Positions 19,468 through 34,295 of a DNA stretch of 64,000 nucleotides are shown piece by piece. The stretch is from Candidatus Dojkabacteria bacterium (GTDB lineage Bacteria; Patescibacteriota; Dojkabacteria; J137), in NCBI GenBank assembly GCA_025993875.1, contig JAMQHH010000014.1, positions 8,009 through 72,008 of the forward strand, given 5' to 3'. The stretch's first letter is position 1. Each line of letters opens with the position of its first letter. The position numbers were made by a program, and so were the translations under genes. The notes under the pieces are model-generated. The model searched no databases. It saw only the letters and a program-made list of their open reading frames with translations, and was not told where the DNA came from.

Positions 19468-20427
19468 CTAATCTTTTTTTATGGCTTGCCAAATCTTAAA
19501 TGCTTCTTTACTAACATCTTGGTTAGTAAATAGTTGATTTTGCAAAAGCCCAAAATATAAAACAATAAGTTTTACAACCTCAACCTTTCGGCTTACAATT
19601 ATAAGTTCATTTGGATCGACTTTGTTCATCTCGCTTAAAAAGATTTTTTCGTATTTTCTGCAAACGTAAAGTCCGTTTAGATAAGCTAAATGTTTTTTTT
19701 CATCTTCCATTCTCTTTTTTAAAAGAGAAAACGATTTTCCTCCAAAATGAAAAACATATGAATAGGTTGTAATGCCAATTTCTCCAAAATTTCTAAGATA
19801 GGTACTTAATTCTAAATCGTCCCAGTATCCGTGTGCTATCTGCGGATCTAAAATATATTCCCTCTGTTTTATTGGAGCAGAATTGAATAGTGTGCAAAAT
19901 CCTCCGCAAAAGTCGTAAAAATGAGAAGATGCTTTAAATTTTTCTCTGCTTTTACTTCTTGGTGATAAGTTTAAAATATTTTGATAAATTTGAGCTCTAT
20001 TTAACCCAAAAGGAAGTCTTTTTATTATCTTCCAAAAAACTGTATCTTGATAAAAGCTGTTACAATCGGGCATGATCTGCGAAATTTTAGGGTTGTTATC
20101 CATCTCATCGTTTAATATCTTAAGCCAATCCTTTGTTACAATCGCATCGCTATTTAAGAGGCAAATTCTTTTGTGTTTTACTGCGTCTAGATAACATGTG
20201 TTAACTCCTCCTGTAAGACCGAGATTTTTTTTGTTTTTATATATTTTAATTTTATCTGGATATCTCTTTTTAAAATTTTCTCCTACTTTGTAAGAACCTG
20301 CATCTTGCGAATTATGCACAAGATAAATACAAAAATCTTGTGTGAATTTAAAAATGCTATTTATACATTGTTTTAAATGCCATGGAGTTTTATAGTTAAC
20401 AATAACTATAGCTGTAGAATTTTGCAT
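19468..20427 (-). CDS. Family 2 glycosyltransferase
   Basis: 319 aa. The N-terminus IVIVNYKTPWHLKQCINSI and the NSDAIV (DxD-like) region are typical of GT2 / GT-A fold enzymes. Confidence 0.55.
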   Translation of the reverse strand: MQNSTAIVIVNYKTPWHLKQCINSIFKFTQDFCIYLVHNSQDAGSYKVGENFKKRYPDKIKIYKNKKNLGLTGGVNTCYLDAVKHKRICLLNSDAIVTKDWLKILNDEMDNNPKISQIMPDCNSFYQDTVFWKIIKRLPFGLNRAQIYQNILNLSPRSKSREKFKASSHFYDFCGGFCTLFNSAPIKQREYILDPQIAHGYWDDLELSTYLRNFGEIGITTYSYVFHFGGKSFSLLKKRMEDEKKHLAYLNGLYVCRKYEKIFLSEMNKVDPNELIIVSRKVEVVKLIVLYFGLLQNQLFTNQDVSKEAFKIWQAIKKD

Positions 20428-21180
20428 TTACTTTATCTCTCTTATAATAAGCATTGGTGTATTACCTGATTGGCCTTGCGGATTTCCTTTTAAAATTGTT
20501 GCCAAATCGTTTAAGCTATATTTCTTTTTTACACTTTTACTTACACCACAAATATTGTTATCAATAAAATTACCATCGAGTATTATTGTTGGTATACCTA
20601 GCTTCTCTTCAACCTCATTACAAATTGATTCCGGATTTTTAGGGGCTAAAAAGCCATATCCTCTTAATTTTGGAGGATAAAATTCGGGCGGTAAAAAACC
20701 ATCTATAGCATTTACATTGTTTCCGGCTATTCTATAAAACCAACCTCTAATGCCAACTAACTTTAAAAATCCTCCAATAAATACTGCAAGTGTAAATCTG
20801 AACCAACCGGCTTCCCTTATTGCAAGCTGAATTTTTCGCGGAACTGCAAAACCCGGGTCATCTGGCCACTTTTTTACAAACCGAACAAGAAATTTTGCCA
20901 GCCAACCTACTTTTACCTCGCTTTCTTTAACGTAAAATCCTCTGGTGATACTTACAACTTTTGAAGCAATGCAGAAAAGGTCTCCTTCTTTAAAATGAGG
21001 GCTGGCATATTCCTTTATAATTTTAATTAAATCTTCGTCAAAAAGAATAAGACGGGTCTTTATCGGGTATCGGGCAAATTTTCTACCGTTTAAATCGGTA
21101 AAGATCTCCCTGCCTTCTATGGGACTTGTTTTTAGCCCTTCATCTTCGTGTATTACCTCTTCGACCTCGGCTTTATTCAT
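20428..21180 (-). CDS. Hypothetical protein with weak resemblance to F420-0:gamma-glutamyl ligase (CofE)-like fold
   Basis: 250 aa. GDLFCIASKVVSITRG is loosely like the CofE block G-D-[VI]-x-V-V-S-x-K-V-V-S-K-A-E-G. Low confidence. Its start abuts the stop of the upstream gene, so it lies within the operon 21830-19468. Confidence 0.3.
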   Translation of the reverse strand: MNKAEVEEVIHEDEGLKTSPIEGREIFTDLNGRKFARYPIKTRLILFDEDLIKIIKEYASPHFKEGDLFCIASKVVSITRGFYVKESEVKVGWLAKFLVRFVKKWPDDPGFAVPRKIQLAIREAGWFRFTLAVFIGGFLKLVGIRGWFYRIAGNNVNAIDGFLPPEFYPPKLRGYGFLAPKNPESICNEVEEKLGIPTIILDGNFIDNNICGVSKSVKKKYSLNDLATILKGNPQGQSGNTPMLIIREIK

Positions 21181-21185
21181 ATAAG

Positions 21186-21830
21186 TTATTCGTTTTGATT
21201 AATAAATGAATATACCTGAGAATCCTTCCCTATTTCGGCAATATAAACAATGTTAGATTTTAGTATATAAAATGCACCTTCGGGCTGGTAAACCTCTTCT
21301 TTAGAAGGCTTTGTGACATATATTTTTTCTTCACTTTTTCCATCTGAACCAGCTTCCTTTTTCCTAACAAGATAATATGGATCGTTACATTTAATATACT
21401 CAGAATTTAGGTTTTCAATTTTGCAAAAGTAAAATAGGTTGTTTTGCAAGAAAACAATGTTATATGTATCTGAACCAAACGCATCTAAGAGAGGCAAGCT
21501 CATTTGATTATCTAAGTTTGTTAATACCCTTATACCTAAAAACGAGGCTATCGCAATAAGAATAATAGTAACAAATATGGCTGATTGTTTTACAATTCTG
21601 AAAATTCCTTTAGCTATTATGTAAGAAGTCGCACTATTTTTTGATGTAGCAGATGTGTTTACGCTTGCAACCGATGCCGCAGGAACCTGAGAGCTTGGTA
21701 CAAAATATCCTGCAGTAACATTTTGTACGGGCCTTTGCTGAACTTGCTGGGGAACCGGATTGATATTTTTTTGTGAAGAACTTACCTCCGGTTGATTATT
21801 ATACTGCTGAGTCTGCTGATTGTTGCTCAT
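21186..21830 (-). CDS. Hypothetical membrane protein with a Q/S/P-rich low-complexity N-terminus
   Basis: 214 aa. MSNNQQTQQYNNQPEVSSSQ...QQVQQRPVQ is followed by one TM helix (FVTIILIAIASFLGI). Confidence 0.4.
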   Translation of the reverse strand: MSNNQQTQQYNNQPEVSSSQKNINPVPQQVQQRPVQNVTAGYFVPSSQVPAASVASVNTSATSKNSATSYIIAKGIFRIVKQSAIFVTIILIAIASFLGIRVLTNLDNQMSLPLLDAFGSDTYNIVFLQNNLFYFCKIENLNSEYIKCNDPYYLVRKKEAGSDGKSEEKIYVTKPSKEEVYQPEGAFYILKSNIVYIAEIGKDSQVYSFINQNE

Positions 21831-21856: not shown

Positions 21857-21891
21857 AAAGGCGCCCCAACAAACATTGTCGGGACGCCTTT
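21857..21891 (-). terminator. Rho-independent terminator after the giant surface-protein gene
   Basis: On the minus strand, TAAAGGCGTCCCGACAATGTTTGTTGGGGCGCCTTT (stem AAAGGCG+CCC) is followed by TACATTTTAAA (T-rich). Confidence 0.5.
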
Positions 21892-21912: not shown

Positions 21913-24792
21913 CTATTGAAGTACTGCTGTCCAAGCTACTCCTGTAACTGTATCTGCACCTGCTCCACCCGGACCTGTAACAATAATTGTTGCTGTATTG
22001 GATCCAGTTGGATCGGAAACTAATGCAACTCTTGTATTTGGTCCAGCCGATGCTGTTATTGGTGTAAATGTTATTGATTGAATCGGTGCACCTACATTAA
22101 TTACGCAAGTAAATCCTGCTGCTGTGGTAACTCCCGCACATGTTAAATCTACGCCTCCTGTTACTACATTTCTTGCCTGTAGTGCTGTTACGTCAGCTTG
22201 AAGGTTTGTAATATCAGTTTGAGCGGTTGTCATAGCAGTTTGCAGATTTGTTACATCTGTTTGTAACAATGTAACCGACGAATTAATATTTGTTAATTCG
22301 GAAGCTACATCTGCGTATCCTGTAATAGAGAGAGTTCCCAAAACATTTAGGTTTCCAGTTAAATCAGCATTACCTAAATAAGCATTTGCCCATCTGTAGG
22401 TTGTATTACCTAAACTGTAAACATTATCAATATCGGGAATTAAATCGCTATCGACTGTACCTAGGAATGTTGCCATGTTGTTTACAACAAGATCATTTAC
22501 TGTGAGTTGAGCATTAATAAACGAATTACTGTCAACTGTTAATGCACCACTAAATGAAGCATCTCCGGACTGTGTAATAGTTGCTCCACCTGCTCCATAA
22601 CCTGCTCCTGTAGCTAAAAATCCATCCATATAGATATCACCTGTATCGGTTAAGGTTAAACCTCCATCAGCATCTCCATAACCACCCGCTACATTCATAT
22701 AACGGTTTGTTCGTAGTGCTCCAAATTCGTCTATAGTTAAACCTCCGTCGGCATCACCAAACCCACCTCCGACTTGCAGAGAGAAATCAACAAAGCTTGT
22801 CTCTGTTGTTGTATTGTCAGAGTAGACATTTGCCCATCTTGTAGTATCTGAGCCTAGGTTGAATAAAGAATCCCACGATGGCATGGCATTGCCAAAGAAT
22901 GTGGTTGTTCCAGCTCCATCTACCCACAAAAGCGTTCTAAACGGATCGTCTCGTCTTGTTATAATCATTCCGCTATTATCTTCGATAGTTAGCGGATCGG
23001 AATCACCGGAACTGATTGGACCGGTTATTACTACTCTGTCGGAGTTTGCATTTCCTAAAAATACATCTCCGGTTGCTCTTAAATTATCGTTTACTACAAC
23101 GGTTCCCGTAGAGTTGTAAATTTCTCCGTTTACATTAAGATTTCCACCAACTGTTGCATTTCCTAAAATATTTGCGTCATCACAGTAGCTTGAGCCTCCC
23201 GTAGTTGTAAAGCAATCTGCAAAGATGTTATCTACAAACAGGTTTGCCCAAGAATGTGCTGCGCTTCCAAGGCTATATATTCCGTCACCATCCGGTAATA
23301 TGTCAGATCTTACCAAAGAATAAAATCTTACTATATCGGCATCGCTATTACCGATTCTAACTTCGCCATTTAAAAACGAAGTTCCATCGGTTGCTATATT
23401 TCCTCTGGTGTACATATCTCCGGTTGAATTTACTACAAAAAGTTCATTATTTGTTAAATCAAAAAGCCTTATTCCGGATGCTGCAGTATGAATTGCTCTT
23501 ATATTTAATTCACTTGCATCTACTGTTCCTTCTACTCTAAGATCTCCGATTAACTTTGCTTCAAAATTTGTTGCTTCGGGAATTTCAAATCCGTTATCAC
23601 CAGTTCTTAAAACGCTAAATACCGGGTCACCGATAGCGGTAAGTCCCACTTCTAGGCTTCCTAATACCTGAGCATTTTCATCTACTGATAGGTTATCAAC
23701 AATATGCGCACTATCGCAGTATGTAGAACCTCCCATTGAAGAAAAACAATCTGCTGAAAGATTTGCAGCATAAATATTTGCCCATCTTAAAGCACTTGTT
23801 CCTAAGCTATAAGTATTATCTACCATTGGCACAAGATCAGAAGTAGCTCTACCTAAAAAGAATAGTGCGTCGGATGCGCTGTTTCCTAAATATGTATCAA
23901 AATTAAAATAACTTGCACCTTCGAAAGTGCTTGTTCCTAAAACTCTTAAAGTTCCATCAAATCTTGTATTTGCAAATCCTACAAGATCATCAACCAAAAT
24001 CGTTTTACCATATACATATAAGTCCTCGCTCAGTCGAGTAAGACCGTTTACTGTTAAAGCAGGTGCCAATGTTGATGCATAGGGAGAATTTATTGTTAGG
24101 GCCCCGCTCATAGTATCTCCCGTAACGTTTACGTAAAGATCATTTGCCTGGCCTTTTAATAAAACGTCTGTATTACTGTTGTTATCAAGGTATCCTTGAT
24201 CGGCTAAATCCGAGTATGCATCAAAATATGTGTTTCCTAATAATCCTGCATTTATGTTACTTGCATTTCTAAAAAATGTTGAGTCAAATCCATCTAGTAA
24301 ATCTGCATTTCTGAAAAAAGACGAATCAAATCCGTCCAATAAATCAGAATTTAATCCAGACCCGTTTCCCTGCAAAAGGTTAAGAGTAACATTTTGTCCC
24401 GATGTGGTAACAGGAAGATTTCCACTTATTGAGGTAATTGTTATATCACCCTCCGAGATGTTATTAATAGAAGTAATGTTTTCAGTGGACCCTATAGGAA
24501 AAGAGAATGGGGTGTCTTCCTCGCCGGGTGCTTTTACAACTAATTCGTCGTTTTCGTTGACCAAAACTTTTAGCTCACCTTCTTTAGTTGTAGCTCCAAG
24601 AACCTGATCGTTCTTTTTTGAATCGAGATCTTCGGTGATCAATTTACCTTTAATAGTTTGACCATCCTTTAATTCAATACCAATTTCTTTATTATTTAGA
24701 TTGATATTGGGGGTAAATAAACCTATTACTGCAATGATTACAGCGATCAGGCTGAATGCTGCAAGTAACCTAACTACATTAGATTTACTCAT
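21913..24792 (-). CDS. Large (959 aa) repeat-containing fibrous secreted/surface protein (tail-fibre-like repeats)
   Basis: N-terminal signal-anchor. G/T/S/N/D-rich. A tandem 14-aa repeat DLLDGFDS(S/T)FFRNA x2. Four copies of a D-[LI]-[VIL]-P-x2-D-x2-Y-S-L-G-x4-[RS]-W-A-N-x-[YF] unit, two followed by ADCF..GGS.YCD. A GYGDADGGLT x2 repeat. A C-terminal coiled-coil-like TNLQ...TNLQADVTALQ. Confidence 0.6.
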   Translation of the reverse strand: MSKSNVVRLLAAFSLIAVIIAVIGLFTPNINLNNKEIGIELKDGQTIKGKLITEDLDSKKNDQVLGATTKEGELKVLVNENDELVVKAPGEEDTPFSFPIGSTENITSINNISEGDITITSISGNLPVTTSGQNVTLNLLQGNGSGLNSDLLDGFDSSFFRNADLLDGFDSTFFRNASNINAGLLGNTYFDAYSDLADQGYLDNNSNTDVLLKGQANDLYVNVTGDTMSGALTINSPYASTLAPALTVNGLTRLSEDLYVYGKTILVDDLVGFANTRFDGTLRVLGTSTFEGASYFNFDTYLGNSASDALFFLGRATSDLVPMVDNTYSLGTSALRWANIYAANLSADCFSSMGGSTYCDSAHIVDNLSVDENAQVLGSLEVGLTAIGDPVFSVLRTGDNGFEIPEATNFEAKLIGDLRVEGTVDASELNIRAIHTAASGIRLFDLTNNELFVVNSTGDMYTRGNIATDGTSFLNGEVRIGNSDADIVRFYSLVRSDILPDGDGIYSLGSAAHSWANLFVDNIFADCFTTTGGSSYCDDANILGNATVGGNLNVNGEIYNSTGTVVVNDNLRATGDVFLGNANSDRVVITGPISSGDSDPLTIEDNSGMIITRRDDPFRTLLWVDGAGTTTFFGNAMPSWDSLFNLGSDTTRWANVYSDNTTTETSFVDFSLQVGGGFGDADGGLTIDEFGALRTNRYMNVAGGYGDADGGLTLTDTGDIYMDGFLATGAGYGAGGATITQSGDASFSGALTVDSNSFINAQLTVNDLVVNNMATFLGTVDSDLIPDIDNVYSLGNTTYRWANAYLGNADLTGNLNVLGTLSITGYADVASELTNINSSVTLLQTDVTNLQTAMTTAQTDITNLQADVTALQARNVVTGGVDLTCAGVTTAAGFTCVINVGAPIQSITFTPITASAGPNTRVALVSDPTGSNTATIIVTGPGGAGADTVTGVAWTAVLQ

Positions 24793-24888: not shown

Positions 24889-26832
24889 TTAGTGATTTTC
24901 TTTTAAGAGCATGTACATGTAACTGTAACTATTAGAAGAATCGAGGTTGATTGTTTTTAGCTTTTCAAAATTTATCTCTTCTATGTTGTTTATTGCTGCC
25001 CAAAAGTATATTTGATCTTCCAGAAAACCGCTTCCCGACATATTATTTATAAAGTATTGATACTGGATTAAAGCATTAGGGTTATTACGTAGGTAAAAAC
25101 TCCCGCGCGAAATCGGCAATATTATTATTCCAAGCTTTGCTTCAATTTCGTTACTAAAAAAGGTAGCGAGTTCGGCTTTTCCTTGCCATAAAAGTGAGAT
25201 AAAGGGAAGGTTTTCGGGTAGAACGCTATTGTAATTCCACCAATACTCTTTTGCAGCCTCAATTTCCATTGTATAAAGGGAAAGCGCGTAGTTTTGCATT
25301 TCCAAATTGTTACTAATTCGCGCGTTAAGGTAAACTGCATACCAAGCATTTATAGCTTCCGAAACTGATTCTTGATTATTCCCGTCTCTAAACTGATCAA
25401 GCCCATTTGCCCATGAATGCCATTCAAAAAGATCGAAATATCTTAAAAATGGGTAGCTTGTGTTATCTAAATTATAATTCATTATATCTAATACAAGTTT
25501 GGTAACAATCCCAGCATACTTTTCTTTAAATTCTGTATCAATTTCTGCAAGTTGTGTGTAAGCATAAATAAAATATCCATAGTGAAAGTGATGATCATTG
25601 TATCTTTCAGATCCAAAATCAGGCTTTTGCGCTAGGATGCCTTTCCCGCTTGTATCGTATGCAAAATATTTATTATTCTCGCCCTTAGTGTATGTAAACC
25701 AGTCTATTAGTTCGCTTTTTAAAACTTCTGAAATTAATTTTGTGCGTTTCCCGCTATCGGTTTTATCCAGCAAGATTGCCGGCTCGAGCATGTTGGCAAG
25801 CCTGAAAAGCTCTTTACCAATAAAATATATTGATGAGCTTTGCACAGATAATGTACTCAGATCGATTTTCATTAGGCTATCTAATTCGGCTAATATATAA
25901 CCTTCCTTGTATGGCGACTTATCGGGTACAGAAAGATCTATTGAAAGTGCTAACTCTTTTCCGATAAAAGTTTCTAACTTACCTCTTATTGTACTGATTG
26001 AAAAGGCAGTATCTACATTTTTTTCTAAAAATTTTTTATGAATTGGGAGAAATCCGATAAATGTGTCTCCTTCATTTTCTGTATAGATTTGATACTCTAA
26101 TCCCAGCTTGCTGTTATCGGCAAATGTAAAGTTTACCTCAGATTTTACAGGAAGGTTTACTGCCGTTTTTTGGTAAAACTCCAAATATATCTCGTTTGGA
26201 ATGTAACCCAAAGCTATGTATTTGCCAGAAATTTTTTTTTGGTCCTGTATTGTTGCACCCTCTAAACTTTCCAAATAAAAAAGTTTTCCTGACTCGCTTA
26301 CAATTACCTTTTCTTCTTTAAAATTTTCAGCCTGTTTTAGTATAAAACTATTTTTGCACTCAGATATATAAATAAGAGGGTTACCTCTAACCAATGTTAA
26401 TTTAAAAAATCCGGTATCATTATAAAATTTATATCTAGCCAAAAGAGCATCAAAATATTCAAGCTCGTAGTTATAGGTATTATCGAATTCTATTGTTAGA
26501 TCGGGAGAAAAACTTTGAAAAACTCCCTGTTCTAATGTAATTTGAGAAGGAATAGAATATGCAATTTGTGTAGCCGAAAGCTCTATAGAATATGGATAAG
26601 GGTAAATTGGATTGTCTTTTTCGCCAAGGCTTCCCGTAAACCACTTATTTGTTGGTAATGGCTGTTTTTGCAAATCTTTAGAGAGTTTTAAAGTGTATGT
26701 GGTGCTTATTTCGGGGGAATTTTCAGAATATACTTCCTCCTCAATGTATAAGGGTTTTAAACCAGAGGAAACGATAATAATTGCAATTCCTGTTGTAAAA
26801 AGTGTAAGAAAGATAAAAAAGGTAGATTTCAT
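24889..26832 (-). CDS. Membrane-anchored glycoside hydrolase, GH81-like endo-beta-1,3-glucanase
   Basis: 647 aa with an N-terminal TM segment. The block YNDHHFHYGYFIYAYTQLAEID matches, as I remember it, the conserved GH81 motif (DHHFHYGY). Its start overlaps the stop of the HlyD-like gene (ATGA). Confidence 0.5.
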   Translation of the reverse strand: MKSTFFIFLTLFTTGIAIIIVSSGLKPLYIEEEVYSENSPEISTTYTLKLSKDLQKQPLPTNKWFTGSLGEKDNPIYPYPYSIELSATQIAYSIPSQITLEQGVFQSFSPDLTIEFDNTYNYELEYFDALLARYKFYNDTGFFKLTLVRGNPLIYISECKNSFILKQAENFKEEKVIVSESGKLFYLESLEGATIQDQKKISGKYIALGYIPNEIYLEFYQKTAVNLPVKSEVNFTFADNSKLGLEYQIYTENEGDTFIGFLPIHKKFLEKNVDTAFSISTIRGKLETFIGKELALSIDLSVPDKSPYKEGYILAELDSLMKIDLSTLSVQSSSIYFIGKELFRLANMLEPAILLDKTDSGKRTKLISEVLKSELIDWFTYTKGENNKYFAYDTSGKGILAQKPDFGSERYNDHHFHYGYFIYAYTQLAEIDTEFKEKYAGIVTKLVLDIMNYNLDNTSYPFLRYFDLFEWHSWANGLDQFRDGNNQESVSEAINAWYAVYLNARISNNLEMQNYALSLYTMEIEAAKEYWWNYNSVLPENLPFISLLWQGKAELATFFSNEIEAKLGIIILPISRGSFYLRNNPNALIQYQYFINNMSGSGFLEDQIYFWAAINNIEEINFEKLKTINLDSSNSYSYMYMLLKENH

Positions 26833-27455
26833 ATTCTAAGTTTTACATCTACAGGTTGCTCAAAAAAAAGCCCATTTGGAACAGGGTCGATTTTAAACAG
26901 AGCTTTTATCTCGCCATCGGTAAGAAATGGATAAAGATATATAAGTTCTGCATTGTGAGGCGATTTGTCTAAAGGATTGATCCACTCTGCGGTTTTTGGC
27001 TGAGTAAAGTCAAAATCAATTGTCCAGTTAAATGGTATCGAGGCTTCAATATAATCCGAATCTACAACTATAATATCTAATATCTTGGCATATAAAGTTA
27101 CTGTATCACCTTTGTTAAGACTTATATTAGTAACCTCTCCTTTAGAAGTTGAATATACACTCGAAATAAATGATTCTTCTGTATTAGTTTGTTCGACCCC
27201 AACAATATTATCTCCTACTCTTCCTAAAAGAGTTTCTATTTCTGCAATTTTTTCACCTTTATCTACAAAATCACCATTTGTTACATACATTTCTTTTATC
27301 TGCCCTATCGAAACTGAATTTATAGTGGCTATTTCGGCCTTTAATTTTCCTTTTAGAGTAATTTCTTTTTTATTGCTAAAAACCTTGTTAAATAATAGAT
27401 AACCAAATCCGAAAATTAAAATTACAAACATTACTGTAAAAATTCTTTTACTCAT
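26829..27455 (-). CDS. HlyD-like membrane-fusion/periplasmic adaptor protein (biotin-lipoyl-like barrel)
   Basis: 208 aa. An N-terminal TM segment, then GQIKEMYVTNGDFVDKGEKIAEIE, a lipoyl-like hairpin typical of HlyD/MFP adaptors. Overlaps the GT2 synthase gene by 8 nt. Confidence 0.45.
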   Translation of the reverse strand: MSKRIFTVMFVILIFGFGYLLFNKVFSNKKEITLKGKLKAEIATINSVSIGQIKEMYVTNGDFVDKGEKIAEIETLLGRVGDNIVGVEQTNTEESFISSVYSTSKGEVTNISLNKGDTVTLYAKILDIIVVDSDYIEASIPFNWTIDFDFTQPKTAEWINPLDKSPHNAELIYLYPFLTDGEIKALFKIDPVPNGLFFEQPVDVKLRI

Positions 27456-29010
27456 TTGTTGCTAAATTAATATGTAATCTCTCTTTTCTGCTTTTTTTTC
27501 GGTAAAATTTAGTAAAAATCATTGTCTTGAGTCCTTTTTCCTTAATAAATTCAAGGATAATTGTGCCAAATAATGCTGAATAAAGGCTTACCCAAAATAT
27601 ACTTAAAACTGTCGACGGAATGTCTCTAGGCTTAATTGCACCAATCACGATGGATGCTATTCCTAGCCCAAAAATAAGAAGGTGCGGATATATTACCGAG
27701 AAATTGGTCTTTGTTGTTTGTATTCCGTTAGTTGCCTGCCATACAAATTTTCTTCCTAAAAGAATTTCAAAAAAACTGCCTATATATATTGGAAAAGTTG
27801 CAATAGAAAGAGCCATAGACTTAAGTTTTAATCCGCCCATTGCATATAGCGTAATAGAAAAGTTTATTATAAAAAAGGGAATATATCTAATCAGCCAATC
27901 GGTTGCATTATTTGTAACTATGGGTCTTTCTCCTGTTAGCAGATAAATCATAGGAAATAAAACATAAGCCATAATTGCAAAGCCCGAAAGATAAAAAGTG
28001 CACGACATATATTGTATTCTTTGATCTAGTGAAAGATTTCTATTAAAAAGGGGAAAATGTTCCAACAACATAGAAAATCCACCTCTGGACCACCTTCTTT
28101 GTTGCTTAAAATATGATTCTATGGTGTCTGGCGCTAGTCCAATCGCCATAACATCCGGAACATAAAGCGTTTTCCATTTTAATTCGTGCAATTTGTACGA
28201 GGTAAATACGTCTTCGGAGTGGCTAACCTGTGCAAGCCCACCCATTTCTTCTAAAGCTTTTCTTCGATATATTACGTTTGTGCCTACGCAAAATGCAGCG
28301 TTAAACGAATTTTTACCTGGCATTATTAGCTCATAAAAAACATTTTGAATCGGTAAAGCTGCTTCTTCAACAAAGGTGGATCCTTTCTTATAGTACTGTG
28401 GAGTTTGTAAAAGAGCCAGATTTTCATCGTCAAAATATGGGAGCAATTTACTTAAAAAATCTTTTCTTGGAACAAAATCGGCATCAAACACAACTATGTA
28501 TTCACCATTTGATTGTTTTATTGCATTATTTACATTGCCCGATTTAAAATTTTCGTTAGTACCTCTATGTATATATTCAACTTTAAGAGTCTTTGCAAGA
28601 GTTTTGAGCTCATCTCTGCCTTTATCGTCCAAAATATATGTTTTGTGATTAAGATCCATACTTTTAACTGCAACAACTGTTTTCTTTATTACACTGAAAG
28701 GTTCGGTTACAACCGGTATAAACACATCTATTGTTGTCTTTTTAAACTTTTTTTGCAGTTCTTCTTTTTTTGCGTGTAAAGGTGTTGGCTCTTTATGGTG
28801 AAGAATTGTCCACCAAACAAAAACTGAGTGGACAATAACATAGGTTTCAACAATTATGTAAAAAATATATAGATAAGGGTTTGAAATAATTGAGGGATTA
28901 ATAATAAAGGAAAAATATAGAAGTGCAAATATTATTGCTAAAAAGGTAAGCAACAAAATTGACTTTTGCGCCTTTTGTAACTTGTTAAGATGTAACTCTT
29001 CTCTAGACAT
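27448..29010 (-). CDS. Processive family-2 beta-glycosyltransferase (cellulose/curdlan/chitin-synthase-like) with multiple TM helices
   Basis: 520 aa. The D, DxD (VVFDADF), TED-like and QQRRWSRG (QxxRW) motifs of processive GT2 polysaccharide synthases are present. TM helices occur at both ends. Confidence 0.75.
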   Translation of the reverse strand: MSREELHLNKLQKAQKSILLLTFLAIIFALLYFSFIINPSIISNPYLYIFYIIVETYVIVHSVFVWWTILHHKEPTPLHAKKEELQKKFKKTTIDVFIPVVTEPFSVIKKTVVAVKSMDLNHKTYILDDKGRDELKTLAKTLKVEYIHRGTNENFKSGNVNNAIKQSNGEYIVVFDADFVPRKDFLSKLLPYFDDENLALLQTPQYYKKGSTFVEEAALPIQNVFYELIMPGKNSFNAAFCVGTNVIYRRKALEEMGGLAQVSHSEDVFTSYKLHELKWKTLYVPDVMAIGLAPDTIESYFKQQRRWSRGGFSMLLEHFPLFNRNLSLDQRIQYMSCTFYLSGFAIMAYVLFPMIYLLTGERPIVTNNATDWLIRYIPFFIINFSITLYAMGGLKLKSMALSIATFPIYIGSFFEILLGRKFVWQATNGIQTTKTNFSVIYPHLLIFGLGIASIVIGAIKPRDIPSTVLSIFWVSLYSALFGTIILEFIKEKGLKTMIFTKFYRKKSRKERLHINLATNE

Positions 29011-29167
29011 TCTGGAGCCTAATTAAACAAGCCATTATAACAGAAAACAATTATTGCAAAAAATTTTTAGTTTTAAATAAAAAATAATCTTCCTAAAATC
29101 GCCGTAAAATAGATTAGAGTATTTAATTTGATATAATATATTAATAAATAATTTTTAACACCATCCT

Positions 29168-30088
29168 ATGGAATACCTATTTTTTATGTGCGGATTTGGA
29201 TTACTTGGAATTATTATTCTGGCAGTAATAGTATCCCCACCAATTTTTATTGTAAAGCAGCAAACAGTTGCAGTAGTGGAACGATTCGGAAAGTTTGCCC
29301 GTATTGCAACTCCTGGACTGCAATTTAAAATTCCAGTAATCGATAACATTAGCGGGAGGCTTTCTCTTAGAGTAAAACAGTTAGATGTCAGAGCCGAAAC
29401 AAAAACTTTAGATAATGTTTTTGTTCATGTTATCGTTTCGGTTCAATTTTATGTTATACCCGAAAAAGTTTACGATGCATTTTACAAGCTTTTAAATGCA
29501 GAAGTACAGATTAATTCATATGTATTTGATGTTGTAAGAGCCAGAGTTCCATCAATAAAACTAGATGATCTTTTCGAAAAAAAGGATGAAATTGCGACTG
29601 CAGTTAAAAACGAACTCAACGAAACAATGACAGGTTTTGGCTTTAACATTTTAAACGCTCTTGTTACCGATATTGAGCCGGACAAAAAAGTTAAGGAAGC
29701 CATGAACGAGATAAACGCAGCTCAAAGGCTAAGGGTTGCTGCAACCGAAAAAGGAGAAGCAGATAGAATTTTAAAGGTAAAAGCAGCTGAAGCCGATGCT
29801 CAGTCTAAAGCTCTTCAGGGTAAGGGGATTGCCGATCAGCGAAAAGCAATTATTGAGGGTCTTAAAGAGTCTGTTGAAGAGTTCCAAAAAGGTGTAGAAG
29901 GATCTACTTCGCAAGATGTTATGAATTTAGTCTTGCTAACACAGTATTTTGATACATTAAAAGAAGTAGGGCAAAACTCGGCTACAAATACAATCCTAAT
30001 CCCGCATAGCCCTGGAGGACTTAATGATCTTGCAGCACAAGTTAGAGACGCAATAATTACCGGAAATCAGGTAACAAAAACAAGGTAG
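29168..30088 (+). CDS. SPFH/band-7 (stomatin/prohibitin-like) membrane protein
   Basis: 306 aa. An N-terminal TM segment, an SPFH core (VVERFGKFARIATPGLQFKIPVIDNI...), and a coiled-coil A/E/K-rich C-terminal half. Confidence 0.8.
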   Translation: MEYLFFMCGFGLLGIIILAVIVSPPIFIVKQQTVAVVERFGKFARIATPGLQFKIPVIDNISGRLSLRVKQLDVRAETKTLDNVFVHVIVSVQFYVIPEKVYDAFYKLLNAEVQINSYVFDVVRARVPSIKLDDLFEKKDEIATAVKNELNETMTGFGFNILNALVTDIEPDKKVKEAMNEINAAQRLRVAATEKGEADRILKVKAAEADAQSKALQGKGIADQRKAIIEGLKESVEEFQKGVEGSTSQDVMNLVLLTQYFDTLKEVGQNSATNTILIPHSPGGLNDLAAQVRDAIITGNQVTKTR

Positions 30089-30092
30089 ATTT

Positions 30093-31280
30093 TTAGTAAA
30101 CATACAGTAGAAGTGACTTTAAATAGTCTATCTCCATGTGGTTAATATTTATTGGATGGTCTGAAGCAAGCCTTTGTCTACTTATAATTCTCACCTCTCT
30201 TTTTGCATCAAAGGCTGCTTTTTTAATAATTTGTTCAAACATCTCCTGGCTTAAATGATACGAACACGAGCATGTTAAAAGAATTGATCCGACAGGCATT
30301 TTAGATAATGAAGTTCTGTTAATTTCGGCATAGCCTTTTACTGCCTTATCCAAGTCGGTCTTCTTCTTGGCAAAAGCAGGTGGATCTAAAATAATTATGT
30401 CGAAATTTAATGGATTGGAACGTAAAAAATCAAAAGCATCTATGGCTAAAAAATCGTCATCTCCTATACTAAAGCTATTTGCTTCATAGTTTAGCTTACA
30501 TTGATTAATTGCCGGCTCCGAAATATCTATGGTAGTTACAGAAAGAGCGTTTCCTGATTTTGCATAAAGGCTAAATCCTCCTGTGTAACCGAAGCAGTTT
30601 AAAACTTTTTTCCCGTTTGAATAAGTTCCAATTAGGTTTCGCATCTCTCTTTGATCCAAGAACAGCCCAGTTTTCTGACTCTCAGTAATATTTACTACAA
30701 ACTTTATTCCATTTTCCTCCACTAAGGTATTCGAGGAGAGATTTCCGTAAAGTAAACCCTCAAATGGCATAAGTCCATCTTTTGATCGAGCACTCATAGT
30801 AGATTTTTCGTAAATTCCCTCTATTTTCAGCCCAATTTTACTTGAAGCATTCTTAATAAATTTAATAATTGTATTCTTTAACTTATCTATCCCAACAGTC
30901 GAAATTTGCAGGACCAAAATATCGTTATATCGATCAACTATTAGGCCGGGAACTAAATCACCTTCACCATTTATTAGCCTATATGCATTTGTGTTTTTAT
31001 CGTTAAATAGGTTTATACGCATTCGAAATGCCTTTTCGACGTTTTTTTCTAGTGATACAAGAGGATTCTCAGTACTGTAGTTAATCATTCTAATTGCTAT
31101 TGTTGTTTTATTGTTGCAGTAGCCGTGACCTAAAAATTCGTTTGAATAAGAATAAATTTCACAAATGTCACCATCGGCGAATTTTGCGCCATGGCTTATT
31201 GCACCACTAAAAATCCAGTGATGCCTTCTTTTTATGGGAATCTCCTTGCTTTGTTTTAAATAAATTGACGGATATTTCAT
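30093..31280 (-). CDS. PUA-domain class I SAM-dependent rRNA (m5C) methyltransferase, RlmI/RlmK-like
   Basis: GFSLYA motif I region, IILDPPAFAKKK (the DPPxF motif of m5C RNA MTases), and an N-terminal PUA-like region. The probable start is MKYPSIY at 31280, adjacent to the upstream stop; the ORF track extends to 31319. Confidence 0.65.
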   Translation of the reverse strand: MKYPSIYLKQSKEIPIKRRHHWIFSGAISHGAKFADGDICEIYSYSNEFLGHGYCNNKTTIAIRMINYSTENPLVSLEKNVEKAFRMRINLFNDKNTNAYRLINGEGDLVPGLIVDRYNDILVLQISTVGIDKLKNTIIKFIKNASSKIGLKIEGIYEKSTMSARSKDGLMPFEGLLYGNLSSNTLVEENGIKFVVNITESQKTGLFLDQREMRNLIGTYSNGKKVLNCFGYTGGFSLYAKSGNALSVTTIDISEPAINQCKLNYEANSFSIGDDDFLAIDAFDFLRSNPLNFDIIILDPPAFAKKKTDLDKAVKGYAEINRTSLSKMPVGSILLTCSCSYHLSQEMFEQIIKKAAFDAKREVRIISRQRLASDHPININHMEIDYLKSLLLYVY

Positions 31281-32125
31281 TGTATTAATAGCTGTTTTAG
31301 GTAATGCATTCCCCCCCATAATGCTCCCAAGTCGCCAAGTTCCGACTTTAAAATTACCGGTTTAACAGGTATTCGATTATATATCAAATTGTATTCTTTT
31401 ATCAGTTTTTCAATAACTATTTTATTGCCGTTAACGAGTCCTCCTCCCAATACTAATGCCTCCGGCGACCAACACATTGTTATATTTGCGAGTCCGATTG
31501 CCAAATAATTATGTACTTTCTCCCATACTGCTATATCGGCAATTTCACTTGGTTGTTTATTATATTGAGCTTTTAACGCGCTACCCGAAACAAGATTTTC
31601 CAATGTATAAAGTTTTTTATCTATTATCAGAATTTGATGTCCGGGTTCAAAGCCGGTGTAGTGTGGTTCAATAGCATTGTTTACTATCTTTACCCCACCT
31701 ACTCCCGTACTTATGGTTATATACCCGTTAATTTTATAATTTTTTGCTGCCCCAAAAACCGATTCTCCCAACCCAACCATTGCCGTATCGTTTTCTAAAT
31801 AGCAGCGCACACTGAGAGCTGCTTCTAATTCATTTTTTAGAAACACACCTTCCCATTCTTTTAAATGTGGGGCTTTTAGTAAAAAACTTTTGGAAGGTTC
31901 AAGTGTTCCGTGTACACCTGCAGCGGCTAATTTTAAAGAGGAACCTGCTGAAAAATCTTTTATATATTTTTTTGCAATTGAGATAAAATCTCTAAAATTT
32001 TTTGGGGTTGAAAATATTAAAGGTTCGGTAAAGCTTTTTAGCTCCGAACTTAGTGCAATCCGAGATTTTGTTCCTCCTATATCTGCTAAAAAATACATAT
32101 TTTTAATCTTTATCATGCCTGCCAA
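31277..32125 (-). CDS. ROK-family glucokinase
   Basis: ADIGGTKSRIAL (N-terminal ATP-binding), ENDTAMVGLGE, and ISTGVGGVKIV ROK motifs are present. The true start may be MYFLADIGG at 32098, which removes the 23-nt overlap with zwf-gnd. Confidence 0.7.
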   Translation of the reverse strand: MAGMIKIKNMYFLADIGGTKSRIALSSELKSFTEPLIFSTPKNFRDFISIAKKYIKDFSAGSSLKLAAAGVHGTLEPSKSFLLKAPHLKEWEGVFLKNELEAALSVRCYLENDTAMVGLGESVFGAAKNYKINGYITISTGVGGVKIVNNAIEPHYTGFEPGHQILIIDKKLYTLENLVSGSALKAQYNKQPSEIADIAVWEKVHNYLAIGLANITMCWSPEALVLGGGLVNGNKIVIEKLIKEYNLIYNRIPVKPVILKSELGDLGALWGGMHYLKQLLIQ

Positions 32126-34295
32126 ACATATGCCTTATTGCGGTAACTATTTTCCCGGCAAACCTTGGATTAGATTTAGCAGTTATCCTAAAATTAAGTG
32201 AATCTTCTATAACTTTAACATCTACTCCAAGTTTTTTACCTGTTTCCACTGTCCAGTCGCCCATACCGGTATGGGGTGTAATGTGTGAAATCGTATCGAG
32301 TTTATTAGAATAGATTAAAAATGCCTGCCATAACCATACAATTAATTTCGATTCTATTATGCTTCCTGAGCTATAGTTTCCAGCAACCTCCAAAAGGTCA
32401 ATTTCGGGACTATACGTATTTATAAGTTCAAAACCCTCTGCGATAGACTCCATCATTCCATATTCTATTCCGTTATGAACCATTTTTACAAAATGCCCTT
32501 CTCCCGGGTTTGAAAAAATTGTGTATCCCCCTGTTTCGCAGATGCTTTCGAAAAGGTATTCGACAGATCTCGTAACATCCGGTTTTCCTCCTACCATTAC
32601 TGTAGCTCCATTTCTAGCGCCGGTTGGCCCTCCCGAGGTTCCCATATCAATAAACTCAATTCCTTTCTCTTCTAAAAGCTTAAATCTTCTTAAAGAGTCT
32701 ATGTAGTTCGAGTTTCCTCCATCGATAATAATATCTCCTGTCTCCAAAAAGTTTATTAAACCATTTTCGCTAAAAATCACCTCTTCAATAGGATCCCCTT
32801 CTGGTAAATATAAAAGTATTGTTCTTGGCTTGGACATTGCGCTACATAAATCCTTAATGCTATTAAATCCATTAGCTTTATTTTTTACAAAATCAGCCAT
32901 TTTTTCGGGGGTCCGGTTGTAAACGAATAGGTTCCAGCCCTTATCTAGTAATTGATAAGCTATCCCGCCCCCCATTTTCCCTAAACCAATTATTCCAACA
33001 GTTTTTTTGTGATTCTCTACATTTTTATGTAACAGAGGATAAGAATAATCGTTATAAGTAACGATCCGATTAGGATCTTTTAATTTGTTAAACACAGGTA
33101 ATATTAAGTTCCAGCAAAATTTGGCTTCGGATACGGTTACTAGTTTCGAAAAATCACTCTTCAATATTATTTCGTTAAATGCTTTGCAGTATTCGGTAAG
33201 ATACGATTCTCCTTCTTCGTTCTCTTTTTCTGAAAAATATGAAATCTCTTTATTATTGATATTTGCAATAATATATTCTGAGTTACGATTAAAGGAGATA
33301 AGTAGAAAGTCCCCATTTTTAAAATTAATTTTTATCTCTTTTTCGACTTTAGAAAGCTTTTTACCACCTTCAATTTTGGCTACTACTCCTCTCCATCTGG
33401 GGGATTTTAGTTTAAGTTCCATTTTAAAAAAAGTTTCAGTACAAGATCTTTCCAGACCTTCTATGGTTTTATAAGAACTATACTGGCCAAGTATTAATGA
33501 TTGGTCAATAACCTCAAACGATTTTATTGCCCACTCTCTTTTTTCGGCAAAACTTACGGGGTTATATTTGTCAAATTTATCCATAGTAACTAAGGCTAGC
33601 ATTTCGAGCGCATGATTTTGCCCTACATCAGTTAAGGCGCCTGTTGAATCGTAAAATATACTGCGTTTTTCTATGCCTGATGTTTCGTTAATTTTTATTT
33701 CTATGCTTTTTACATAATTTTTATTTAGCGCAGACTCAAAAAGAGAAATTTCAAATCTAAATTTTAGAAAAGACTCTACGATTTTTTTGTAAAGGTAGTG
33801 ATCTATAATATAAAAATTACTACTCAAGTTATTAGCTTGTATTGATGTAGCAATTTTATTGGCTTCGGCCGGTGAGTTTCCGAATGGTTTTTCAGATAAA
33901 AAGAATAATTCGACAGAAGTTAAGGCCAACCGGTTAATTTTTACAATAATATCGTTGTAGCCTGTTGGCGGTACACTTAGATGGATAAAAGCTTTTTGTA
34001 TACCGTTTTTAAGAATGTATTCTTCAATTTTGGAGTAAAGTTCATCATTATTAAAATCACCACTTATAAAATCGGTATTTTTTTCAAGTGGCGAAATATC
34101 CTCAGAATTAAAAATCTCAGTTTTTAAAAAACTAAGAAACTCGGTTTTCCCGAATTGTTTTCTGGATATCCCAATAATATCTACATTTAGAAATTCGGGA
34201 TTCTTTTTGCACAGTAACTTAATACCAGGGAAAATTTTTCTTTTTGCCAGGTCTCCAGTTGCTCCAAATATAAATAAAGCTGTTTTCTTTTCCAT
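32103..34295 (-). CDS. zwf-gnd: Fused glucose-6-phosphate 1-dehydrogenase / 6-phosphogluconate dehydrogenase (decarboxylating, short form)
   Basis: 730 aa. N-terminal half carries the G6PD motifs GATGDLAKRK, EKPFG, IIDHYLYKK (RIDHYLGK), and DVGQNHALEM. C-terminal about 300 aa carries the 6PGD motifs IIGLGKMGGG, DGGNS, GTSGG, and HFVKMVHNGIEYG. Confidence 0.85.
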   Translation of the reverse strand: MEKKTALFIFGATGDLAKRKIFPGIKLLCKKNPEFLNVDIIGISRKQFGKTEFLSFLKTEIFNSEDISPLEKNTDFISGDFNNDELYSKIEEYILKNGIQKAFIHLSVPPTGYNDIIVKINRLALTSVELFFLSEKPFGNSPAEANKIATSIQANNLSSNFYIIDHYLYKKIVESFLKFRFEISLFESALNKNYVKSIEIKINETSGIEKRSIFYDSTGALTDVGQNHALEMLALVTMDKFDKYNPVSFAEKREWAIKSFEVIDQSLILGQYSSYKTIEGLERSCTETFFKMELKLKSPRWRGVVAKIEGGKKLSKVEKEIKINFKNGDFLLISFNRNSEYIIANINNKEISYFSEKENEEGESYLTEYCKAFNEIILKSDFSKLVTVSEAKFCWNLILPVFNKLKDPNRIVTYNDYSYPLLHKNVENHKKTVGIIGLGKMGGGIAYQLLDKGWNLFVYNRTPEKMADFVKNKANGFNSIKDLCSAMSKPRTILLYLPEGDPIEEVIFSENGLINFLETGDIIIDGGNSNYIDSLRRFKLLEEKGIEFIDMGTSGGPTGARNGATVMVGGKPDVTRSVEYLFESICETGGYTIFSNPGEGHFVKMVHNGIEYGMMESIAEGFELINTYSPEIDLLEVAGNYSSGSIIESKLIVWLWQAFLIYSNKLDTISHITPHTGMGDWTVETGKKLGVDVKVIEDSLNFRITAKSNPRFAGKIVTAIRHMFGRHDKD

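Follow-up and report, generated by a model that had tools for sequence, protein, structure and literature searches.

A candidate beta-glucan module joining a processive glycosyltransferase, a short membrane fusion adaptor and a GH81 glucanase in Dojkabacteria and Actinomycetota

We describe here three overlapping genes on the minus strand of a 64,000-nucleotide stretch of a Candidatus Dojkabacteria genome (contig JAMQHH010000014.1 of assembly GCA_025993875.1; hereafter the window, whose first letter is position 1). They encode a BcsA-like processive glycosyltransferase of family GT2, a short adaptor of the HlyD or membrane fusion protein (MFP) family, and a membrane-anchored homolog of the GH81 endo-beta-1,3-glucanases. 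The GT2 clade, the GH81 clade, and the adaptor family are strictly co-inherited across phyla, and no earlier description of a GT2-MFP-GH81 module was found in the literature searched. The trio is very likely a synthase-dependent beta-glucan module, and its product probably contains beta-1,3 bonds. We lean slightly toward the more specific view that it makes and processes a linear, curdlan-type beta-1,3-glucan surface polymer in monoderm bacteria.

A coupled gene trio conserved across phyla

The genes for the GT2 (27448..29010, 520 aa), the adaptor (26829..27455, 208 aa), and the GH81 protein (24889..26832, 647 aa) are consecutive open reading frames (ORFs) in that order on the minus strand. 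Direct reading of the sequence shows that the adaptor ATG overlaps the GT2 stop codon by 8 nt (AATGAGTAA) and that the adaptor and GH81 genes share an ATGA overlap of 4 nt (ATATGAAA); the three genes are translationally coupled. A preliminary description of this DNA, made from its letters alone, had placed three overlapping ORFs at 24889-29010 and proposed a functional link among them. Its coordinates proved exact, and the link is supported by the conservation of the trio across phyla and the strict tie of the GT2 clade to GH81.

The same GT2-adaptor-GH81 order is found in a 51% relative, a Saccharibacteria genome, Propioniciclava soli, a Dojkabacteria metagenome-assembled genome (MAG), and one contig of 1.9 Mb. 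When a GH81 alignment was used to scan species-representative genomes, it gave 80 loci, and 87 were analyzed once seven fetched earlier were added. A BcsA-like GT2 lies on the same strand, 625-990 bp upstream of GH81, in 41 of these 87, a spacing that corresponds to the size of the adaptor gene. Carriers belong to the Saccharibacteria, Dojkabacteria, Levyibacteriota, Peribacteria, Ktedonobacteraceae, and more than 25 actinobacterial genera, including Cellulomonas, Microlunatus, Isoptericola, Leifsonia, Nocardioides, and Propionibacterium cyclohexanicum, and the phyla concerned differ by about 40 percentage points in GC content. GH81 genes without a GT2 neighbor were found in Planctomycetota, Verrucomicrobiota, Paenibacillus, Streptomyces, Micromonospora, and Sorangium; in a rough neighbor-joining tree, linked and unlinked GH81 proteins form separate groups, with one exception. 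The trio also appears at two loci that were reached by the adaptor profile alone, one of them in the complete genome of Cryobacterium arcticum.

The reverse test started from the synthase. A metagenome scan with the alignment of clade GT2s yielded 80 loci whose profile scores were bimodal, and the clade was taken as those with at least 500 bits. GH81 follows the GT2 in all 25 clade members that have 1.5 kb or more of sequence downstream, and in none of 27 other BcsA-like GT2s (Fisher p = 2e-15).

A few loci depart from this pattern. Timonella sp. A28 (NZ_CP195159.1) has the sole GH81 of the synthase-linked clade without a BcsA-like GT2 within 6 kb on either side, and its synthase may have been lost or relocated. 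A Moraniibacteriota MAG (JAQTRS010000002.1) has another arrangement, with its clade GT2 some 2 kb downstream of GH81 and not ahead of it. Four trio contigs (L038, L065, L050, and L099) were binned as Gammaproteobacteria, Dongiaceae, and Acidobacteria. Those binned as Gammaproteobacteria have 34-36% GC and group with Levyibacteriota in the GH81 tree and the adaptor alignment, the Dongiaceae contig is 3.9 kb long and has a Saccharibacteria-like adaptor, and the Acidobacteria contig has 72% GC and an actinobacterial-type adaptor of 243 aa. All four are probably mis-binned, in which case every carrier found belongs to a lineage generally regarded as monoderm.

Two contigs of the 51% relative (L001 and L002) differ at two sites in 2.2 kb, each of which breaks another gene of the trio: GGA is changed to TGA in the GT2 of L002 (at 8989), and one nucleotide is deleted in an A6 run of the adaptor gene of L001 (around 9545). 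Either the assemblies are in error at these sites, or the alleles are natural ones, inactivating or phase-variable. The GGA-to-TGA difference raised the question of a recoded genome in which UGA is read as glycine (code 25), which we rejected. TGA is the stop codon of 7 of 47 long ORFs, reading through the adaptor stop leads into non-homologous sequence, and the standard code 11 gives a coding density of 86%.

The synthase

The GT2 protein matches the Pfam families PF00535 (Glycos_transf_2, 3.8e-24) and Cellulose_synt (5.9e-11), and its closest solved structures are those of BcsA (4hg6/5ej1, 8e-49), with an alignment that extends through residue 459. Because its match to the NCBIfam CelA model (1e-69) is much stronger than those to PgaC (2.5e-20) and NodC (2.8e-13), we infer that the donor sugar is glucose rather than N-acetylglucosamine. 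All elements of the processive GT2 signature (D, DxD, ED, QxxRW, KAG-type, and QxPH/Q) align with those of RsBcsA: the catalytic motifs D128/D129, D176-A-D178, S265-E266-D267, and Q303-QRRW-SRG (QQRRW at 303-307), together with K156-S-G-N (K156xGN) and QTPQ at 202-205. These signature motifs are invariant in 20 clade members. The protein also has FCVGTN at 240-245 and WQAT at 424-427. Kyte-Doolittle hydropathy predicts transmembrane (TM) helices at 18-36 and 47-65, a cytosolic GT-A domain at about 90-320, and at least four C-terminal TM helices within 337-486; the protein ends 34 residues past the last helix. The multi-TM processive GT2 with D, DxD, and QRRWxRG motifs that the preliminary description had recognized is thus present, with SED (E266-D267) at the place of the expected TED and Q303xxRW307 in register.

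The protein is nevertheless not a BcsA equivalog, for which we used the trusted cutoffs of the NCBIfam models TIGR03030 and NF008558, a C-terminal PilZ domain, and a BcsB partner. It scores 235 bits against the CelA cutoff of 699 and 192 bits against 992 for the second BcsA model, it has no PilZ match, and the downstream gene encodes an MFP and not BcsB. More generally, profile searches found no PilZ or other cyclic di-GMP (c-di-GMP) domain in the GT2, the adaptor, the GH81 protein, or their homologs; the preliminary description had advised a test for such domains in the partner proteins.

In a core alignment, the GH81-linked GT2s are 37-45% identical to the window copy, compared with 31-32% for BgsA, 28-31% for BcsA, and 33% for a cyanobacterial synthase. 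The clade also has motifs of its own. The acceptor-site motif is FCVGTN, where BcsA has FFCGS and BgsA FCCGS; the catalytic base lies in SED instead of the TED of BcsA and BgsA; and QQxRW takes the place of QRxRW. The gating loop reads W-x-[VA]-T-[GN] where BcsA and BgsA have FxVTxK, and in the window copy (F-V-W-Q-A-T-N-G) the aromatic residue and the threonine are kept, Phe is replaced by Trp, and the lysine is gone. As FxVTxK is fully conserved in BcsA, CrdS, and BgsA (PMC6821405), its failure in the GH81-linked clade sets this clade apart from all three families.

The acceptor-site residues that distinguish the curdlan synthase CrdS from BcsA were mapped onto the window protein with the numbering of 4hg6, which equals that of RsBcsA, and with the CrdS residues quoted in PMC6821405, where RsBcsA H276, N298, and L309 correspond to AtumCrdS Gln237, Gln259, and Lys270. 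The window GT2 has the CrdS-type residues at all three positions (Q205, Q222, and K233), and so do the clade GT2s, with Q in 39 of 39, Q in 39 of 39, and K or R in 39 of 39. BgsA has Q, Q, and R at these sites, and BcsA has H, N/G, and L/T. Since the Q, Q, and K/R residues are shared with CrdS and BgsA, the clade has the kind of acceptor site seen in synthases that form beta-1,3 bonds. The residues would fit curdlan and mixed-linkage glucan alike.

The adaptor

Taken alone, the window adaptor gives only weak Biotin_lipoyl and HlyD profile matches, and a word-based search returned the protein itself and one 78% relative. The family became visible when it was assembled from syntenic loci: in an alignment of 25 orthologs, HlyD_3 and HlyD_D23 match all 25, with a best E-value of 7.5e-18. 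The alignment shows the two half-motifs of a barrel-sandwich (lipoyl-like) domain about 25 residues apart, followed by a beta-barrel, and hydropathy predicts a single N-terminal TM helix at residues 5-23. The AlphaFold2 (AF2) model (pLDDT 83.8) consists of the TM helix and an all-beta ectodomain with no helix beyond the anchor. The barrel-sandwich hybrid and beta-barrel that define an MFP are both present. The adaptor had been described as carrying a biotin-lipoyl/HlyD-like hairpin. Its relationship to HlyD and the MFPs held, but the alpha-helical coiled-coil hairpin of true HlyD proteins was found neither in the alignment nor in the model.

Foldseek returned BesA of Borrelia burgdorferi (PDB 4kkt) as the best solved match to the model (E = 4e-9 over 185 aligned columns), followed by ZneB, MacA, CusB, MexA, and AcrA. 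BesA naturally lacks the alpha-helical hairpin and has lipoyl, beta-barrel, and membrane-proximal domains. It serves a resistance-nodulation-division efflux pump in a diderm spirochaete, whereas the trio adaptor is shorter, has an N-terminal TM anchor, and has a glycosyltransferase as partner. The adaptor family is of modest size (130 clusters of 50% identity at E <= 1e-30), and its members are usually annotated as 'efflux transporter periplasmic adaptor'.

The GH81 protein

Both GH81 Pfam domains are recognized in the 647-aa protein above the gathering cutoff of 25.6 bits: PF17652 at 3.7e-51 (174.9 bits) and PF03639 at 3.6e-11 (43.3 bits). Among solved endo-beta-1,3-glucanases, it matches 6fop at 6.7e-51 and BhGH81 at 1.5e-36. 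The motif YNDHHFHYGY, from which a membrane-anchored GH81 enzyme had been proposed, occupies residues 411-420, and a TM helix is predicted at residues 3-21. The catalytic Asp of NDHHFHYGY (D413) and the two Glu of NNQESxSEA (E488 and E492) are invariant across 38 GH81 homologs, and E488 corresponds in the alignment to the position changed in the catalytic mutant E515A of 6fop.

The AF2 model (pLDDT 91.2, pTM 0.90) reproduces the three-domain GH81 fold. The TM helix and a flexible linker (residues 24-36) precede a beta-sandwich, a helical linker domain, and an (alpha/alpha)6 barrel, and Foldseek gives a TM-score of 0.86 over 654 columns to 6fop (CtLam81A) and of 0.84 to BhGH81. As judged from its sequence, the window protein is a complete and catalytically intact endo-beta-1,3-glucanase homolog, and all the solved, characterized GH81 matches are endo-beta-1,3-glucanases crystallized with laminari-oligosaccharides. 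GH81 homologs of about 660 aa are common in lineages of the candidate phyla radiation (CPR) and in Actinomycetota. The best match of the window protein among the GTDB species representatives returned has 31% identity, and in the rough neighbor-joining tree the window protein groups with a Dojkabacteria MAG.

Proposed function

We propose that the GT2 polymerizes UDP-glucose at the cytoplasmic face of the membrane and threads the chain through its own TM channel, as BcsA does. With no PilZ domain and an altered gating loop, it would have no c-di-GMP gate and might be constitutive or under another control. The hairpin-less MFP would sit on the outer face as a short collar at the channel exit, its TM helix probably packed on the synthase, and would fill the role of BcsB, BgsB, or XcsB in reduced form. 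A hairpin may not be needed because there is no outer membrane to reach. The tethered GH81 would take the role of BcsZ or XcsC and cut the emerging or deposited glucan, for release, for length control, or for later remobilization as a carbon source. The product could serve as a capsule, an adhesin, or an external reserve. That it is beta-1,3-linked, as the preliminary description had suggested, we infer from the specificity of GH81 enzymes together with the CrdS/BgsA-type acceptor site; the product may also be a mixed-linkage glucan.

The closest product analog is the CrdA-CrdS-CrdC system of Agrobacterium. CrdS is likewise a PilZ-less GT2 and makes a linear beta-1,3-glucan that is deposited as a capsule (PMC10819609). 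It differs in keeping FxVTxK (PMC6821405), in its Gram-negative host, and in its neighbors CrdA and CrdC, whose functions are unassigned and for which no MFP or GH81 identity is described (PMC10819609). Plasmid tblastn matches considered as candidate CrdS proteins were rejected: three of them (H8, H14, and H11) belong to bgsBA-type pairs of HlyD and glycosyltransferase genes, and one (H7) is a bcsA with a large downstream ORF.

Among monoderms, Cellulomonas flavigena forms a curdlan-type capsule that is consumed again on carbohydrate-free medium (PMC10819609, PMC3035266). The curdlan genes of cellulomonads have been assigned no further than a pair of GT2s in each genome, 35-39% identical to CrdS (PMC3544764). 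The same 2013 comparative genome paper considered only GH16, GH55, and GH64 enzymes as curdlanases and called the re-use of curdlan by C. flavigena unclear, while in its supplement each of the three cellulomonads has exactly two GH81 genes (PMC3544764). A Cellulomonas MAG in our sample carries the trio. Two GT2s and two GH81s per cellulomonad, with a trio in this MAG, are what would be expected if the trio were the Cellulomonas curdlan system and its GH81 remobilized the polymer. We therefore put forward, tentatively and knowing that it may well prove wrong in part, a broader picture in which the trio is the beta-1,3-glucan machinery of single-membrane bacteria, Cellulomonas curdlan included. 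The GT2 would then represent a fourth family of bacterial beta-glucan synthases, with FxVTxK replaced and without c-di-GMP control, and the external glucan coat of the ultra-small CPR bacteria would be both an adhesive capsule and a reserve that is re-used through GH81, beside glucokinase and pentose-phosphate genes.

Several points weigh against a curdlan-type product or limit the case for it. With FxVTxK lost, the GT2 clade is not simply a CrdS ortholog and could behave differently. CrdS entered the comparison only through the residues quoted in PMC6821405, and the Q/Q/basic residues also occur in BgsA, which makes a mixed-linkage glucan, and in the cyanobacterial synthase, whose product is unassigned; the linkage is not yet readable from the GT2 sequence. 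The loci counted in the association tests are phylogenetically non-independent. Contact between adaptor and synthase is suggested by gene order and analogy only. Finally, the Cellulomonas trio locus comes from a MAG and not from C. flavigena, and the agreement of two GT2s with two GH81s is circumstantial.

Known systems and alternative products

The trio is a variant of the synthase-dependent beta-glucan systems and a member of none of those described. It does not belong to the Xcs, Bgs, Crd, or Bcs systems because their defining features are missing, namely PilZ and BcsB, the C-terminal domain of BgsA and a full-length BgsB, FxVTxK, and crdA/crdC neighbors. Of the synthases whose product is known, BgsBA and BcsA are nearest in sequence, and each suggests an alternative to the beta-1,3-glucan.

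It is possible, although in our view unlikely, that the product is a mixed-linkage beta-(1,3;1,4)-glucan like that of BgsB/BgsA in Sinorhizobium meliloti and further members of the Rhizobiales, with GH81 acting on its beta-1,3 bonds or beta-1,3-rich stretches. As far as is known, the specificity of characterized GH81 enzymes is for beta-1,3 linkages in succession, and the S. meliloti glucan has none of these. The best plasmid-borne tblastn matches of the GT2 are bgsBA-type pairs of HlyD and glycosyltransferase genes (7e-56 and 1e-51, versus 2e-46 for bcsA). BgsA is also a GT2 without PilZ that is paired with an HlyD-family protein (PMC10374906), the adaptor profile can be aligned with BgsB in its C-terminal half (residues 267-393 of 412), and the acceptor-site residues are common to both synthases. 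The core identity to BgsA is nonetheless below that found inside the clade, and Y226 (F in BgsA) adds to the differences in the FCVGTN, SED, QQxRW, and gating-loop motifs. BgsA has 664-669 aa with a C-terminal c-di-GMP-binding region, an extension that the 520-aa window GT2 lacks. In addition, bgsB comes first in the gene order and encodes a full-length HlyD partner upstream of the synthase, where the trio has a 208-aa adaptor downstream, and the bgsBA loci inspected contain neither GH81 nor any other glycanase gene.

Further plasmid pairs of HlyD and BcsA-like glycosyltransferase genes were seen in A. fabrum (pAtGV3101) and R. phaseoli (pRphaN931b), annotated only as 'efflux adaptor' and 'glycosyltransferase' or 'cellulose synthase'. 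The pAt glycosyltransferase is 25% identical to the window core and may belong to another product class.

We consider it improbable that the trio is a cellulose (beta-1,4) synthase system of monoderms that recruited a glycanase of another family, as a counterpart to BcsZ, CcsZ, or XcsC. The top curated models and all solved homologs of the GT2 are indeed cellulose synthases, and BcsA-BcsB-BcsZ has the same logic, in which a processive synthase is joined by an essential periplasmic partner that has one TM helix and by an endoglucanase that trims the product. However, the CelA score lies far under the equivalog cutoff, the three acceptor-site positions hold non-BcsA residues throughout the clade, and no BcsB is present. 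BcsA further differs in its four N-terminal TM helices, PilZ domain, and FFCGS, TED, and FxVTxK motifs; BcsB is unrelated to MFPs, and BcsZ belongs to GH8. One would expect a cellulase partner to come from GH5, GH8, or GH9, whereas none of the GH81 matches found acts on cellulose and the solved ones are beta-1,3-glucanases. The strong conservation of catalytic and substrate-cleft residues in GH81 also argues for a genuine beta-1,3 substrate.

The closest architecture is that of the cyanobacterial Xcs cellulose system, reportedly described by Maeda et al. in 2018. Its XcsA-XcsB-XcsC operon (for example, SynPCC7942_1398-1400) has the order of synthase, HlyD-like protein, and endoglucanase seen in the trio (PMC12430437) and is a further point in favor of cellulose. 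XcsA includes a PilZ domain, the role proposed for XcsB is to bridge to the outer-membrane TolC in a diderm envelope, and XcsC is described as a cellulose endoglucanase (PMC12430437), whereas the trio has no PilZ, an MFP without hairpin, a GH81 hydrolase, and monoderm hosts. The trio may thus work like Xcs in outline without being an Xcs system.

BcsA-like GT2s are also known from Gram-positive bacteria. Clostridial Ccs reportedly (Scott et al., 2020) has a cognate extracellular glycoside hydrolase, CcsZ, which is a GH5 enzyme. Ccs and the mixed-linkage synthase RiGT2/Cgs of Romboutsia ilealis both work without BcsB (PMC10374906). They belong to other GT2 clades in Firmicutes, neither is associated with GH81, and for RiGT2 no neighboring MFP or glycanase gene is reported.

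Equally improbable is that the target of GH81 is a foreign beta-1,3-glucan, in the walls of fungi, oomycetes, or algae or as a polymer of the host, that the polymer of the GT2 and adaptor is unrelated, and that the genes are together through shared regulation or surface localization. Actinobacterial GH81s are currently read as secreted degradative or antifungal enzymes (PMC12823222, PMC4780727), a January 2026 study treating them as secreted enzymes of undetermined role (PMC12823222), and about half of the sampled GH81 loci have no nearby GT2. These unlinked proteins, however, form their own group in the GH81 tree, the linked ones show no carbohydrate-binding modules in Pfam listings, and the window GH81 is anchored in the membrane by its N-terminus. 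The 25 of 25 association with one GT2 clade, with overlapping stop and start codons in phyla so far apart in GC, is hard to explain without a shared substrate.

It is very improbable that the products of the GT2 are short or cyclic beta-glucans, or that it adds glucose to a lipid or wall acceptor, with GH81 as a transglycosylase or remodeller. GH81 is a family of inverting endo-hydrolases and hence of poor transglycosylases. The channel-forming architecture appears to be retained, and QxxRW, the finger-helix ED, and the aromatic residue and Thr of the gating loop are all kept. In favor of this reading are a gating-loop motif unlike that of all characterized polymer synthases and the proposal of BcsA-like 'orphan' proteins as cyclic-beta-glucan synthases (PMC10237404).

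If the trio is a beta-glucan module, three genes that are routinely mis-annotated as 'cellulose synthase', 'efflux transporter adaptor', and 'glycosyl hydrolase' are joined by their strict linkage into one testable system. Synthase-dependent polysaccharide secretion is well described in Gram-negative bacteria (Bcs, Pga, Alg, Bgs, and Crd) and only sparsely in single-membrane bacteria, and the trio is found in many cultured Actinomycetota as well as in many CPR lineages. The hypothesis can be tested directly in cultured carriers, among them Cryobacterium arcticum and Cellulomonas. The clade is also a natural experiment on how GT2s set linkage and gate translocation, combining CrdS/BgsA-type acceptor residues with a different gating loop. 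For the episymbiotic CPR bacteria, whose envelopes are poorly understood, the trio suggests a surface or reserve polymer.

Transcription signals and genomic neighborhood

The window is bacterial chromosomal DNA of low GC content (about 33%) read with genetic code 11. Housekeeping genes include those for UvrA, a UvrD/AddA-type helicase-nuclease, BipA, several tRNA synthetases, a Mur ligase, Ddl, PGK, and AdoHcyase, and a reduced genome of the CPR type is plausible for the host.

An extended -10 element (TGtTATAAT, 29034..29042, minus strand) precedes the GT2 start codon by 24 nt, within a 157-bp divergent intergenic region shared with an SPFH/Band-7 gene. It has no good -35 and is absent from the list of the consensus promoter scan, and is only suggestive of the trio promoter. 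Downstream of the trio, the first convincing terminator-like site is a strong hairpin with a 16-bp stem and 8 GC pairs (21857..21891, minus strand). It follows the next gene, and the terminator scan found none between that gene and GH81.

This next gene (21913..24792, minus strand), directly after GH81, encodes a membrane-anchored, repeat-containing protein of 959 aa with four [YF][SN]LG..RWAN repeats (residues 328, 506, 644, and 792), two LDGFDSxFFRNA repeats, a C-terminal coiled-coil, and a weak match to a phage endosialidase tail-spike (PF12219). It looks like a cell-surface fiber. The gene is possibly co-transcribed with the trio, and it has its own extended -10 promoter-like site (24867-24838) in addition to the strong terminator. 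As a fourth component of the module it is doubtful, being conserved (as an 823-aa protein) only in the 51% relative and not in other trios.

Further downstream, three minus-strand genes (19468-21830) are conserved with the same relative. Their products are a protein of 214 aa that is Q-rich at its N-terminus and has one TM helix, a CofE/F420-glutamyl-ligase-like protein of 250 aa, and a non-processive GT2 of 319 aa. This block and the fiber protein may form a surface-glycosylation neighborhood.

On the other side of the trio, at 31277-34295 on the minus strand, lie genes for a ROK-family sugar kinase and a 730-aa fusion of glucose-6-phosphate dehydrogenase and 6-phosphogluconate dehydrogenase, which are likewise found in contig L001 of the relative. 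This pair would fit the re-use of glucan-derived glucose. The SPFH/Band-7 gene (29168-30088, plus strand), which diverges from the promoter region of the trio, encodes a stomatin/flotillin-like membrane protein and is in the same position in three of four contigs of the window organism; the fourth begins inside the GT2 gene.

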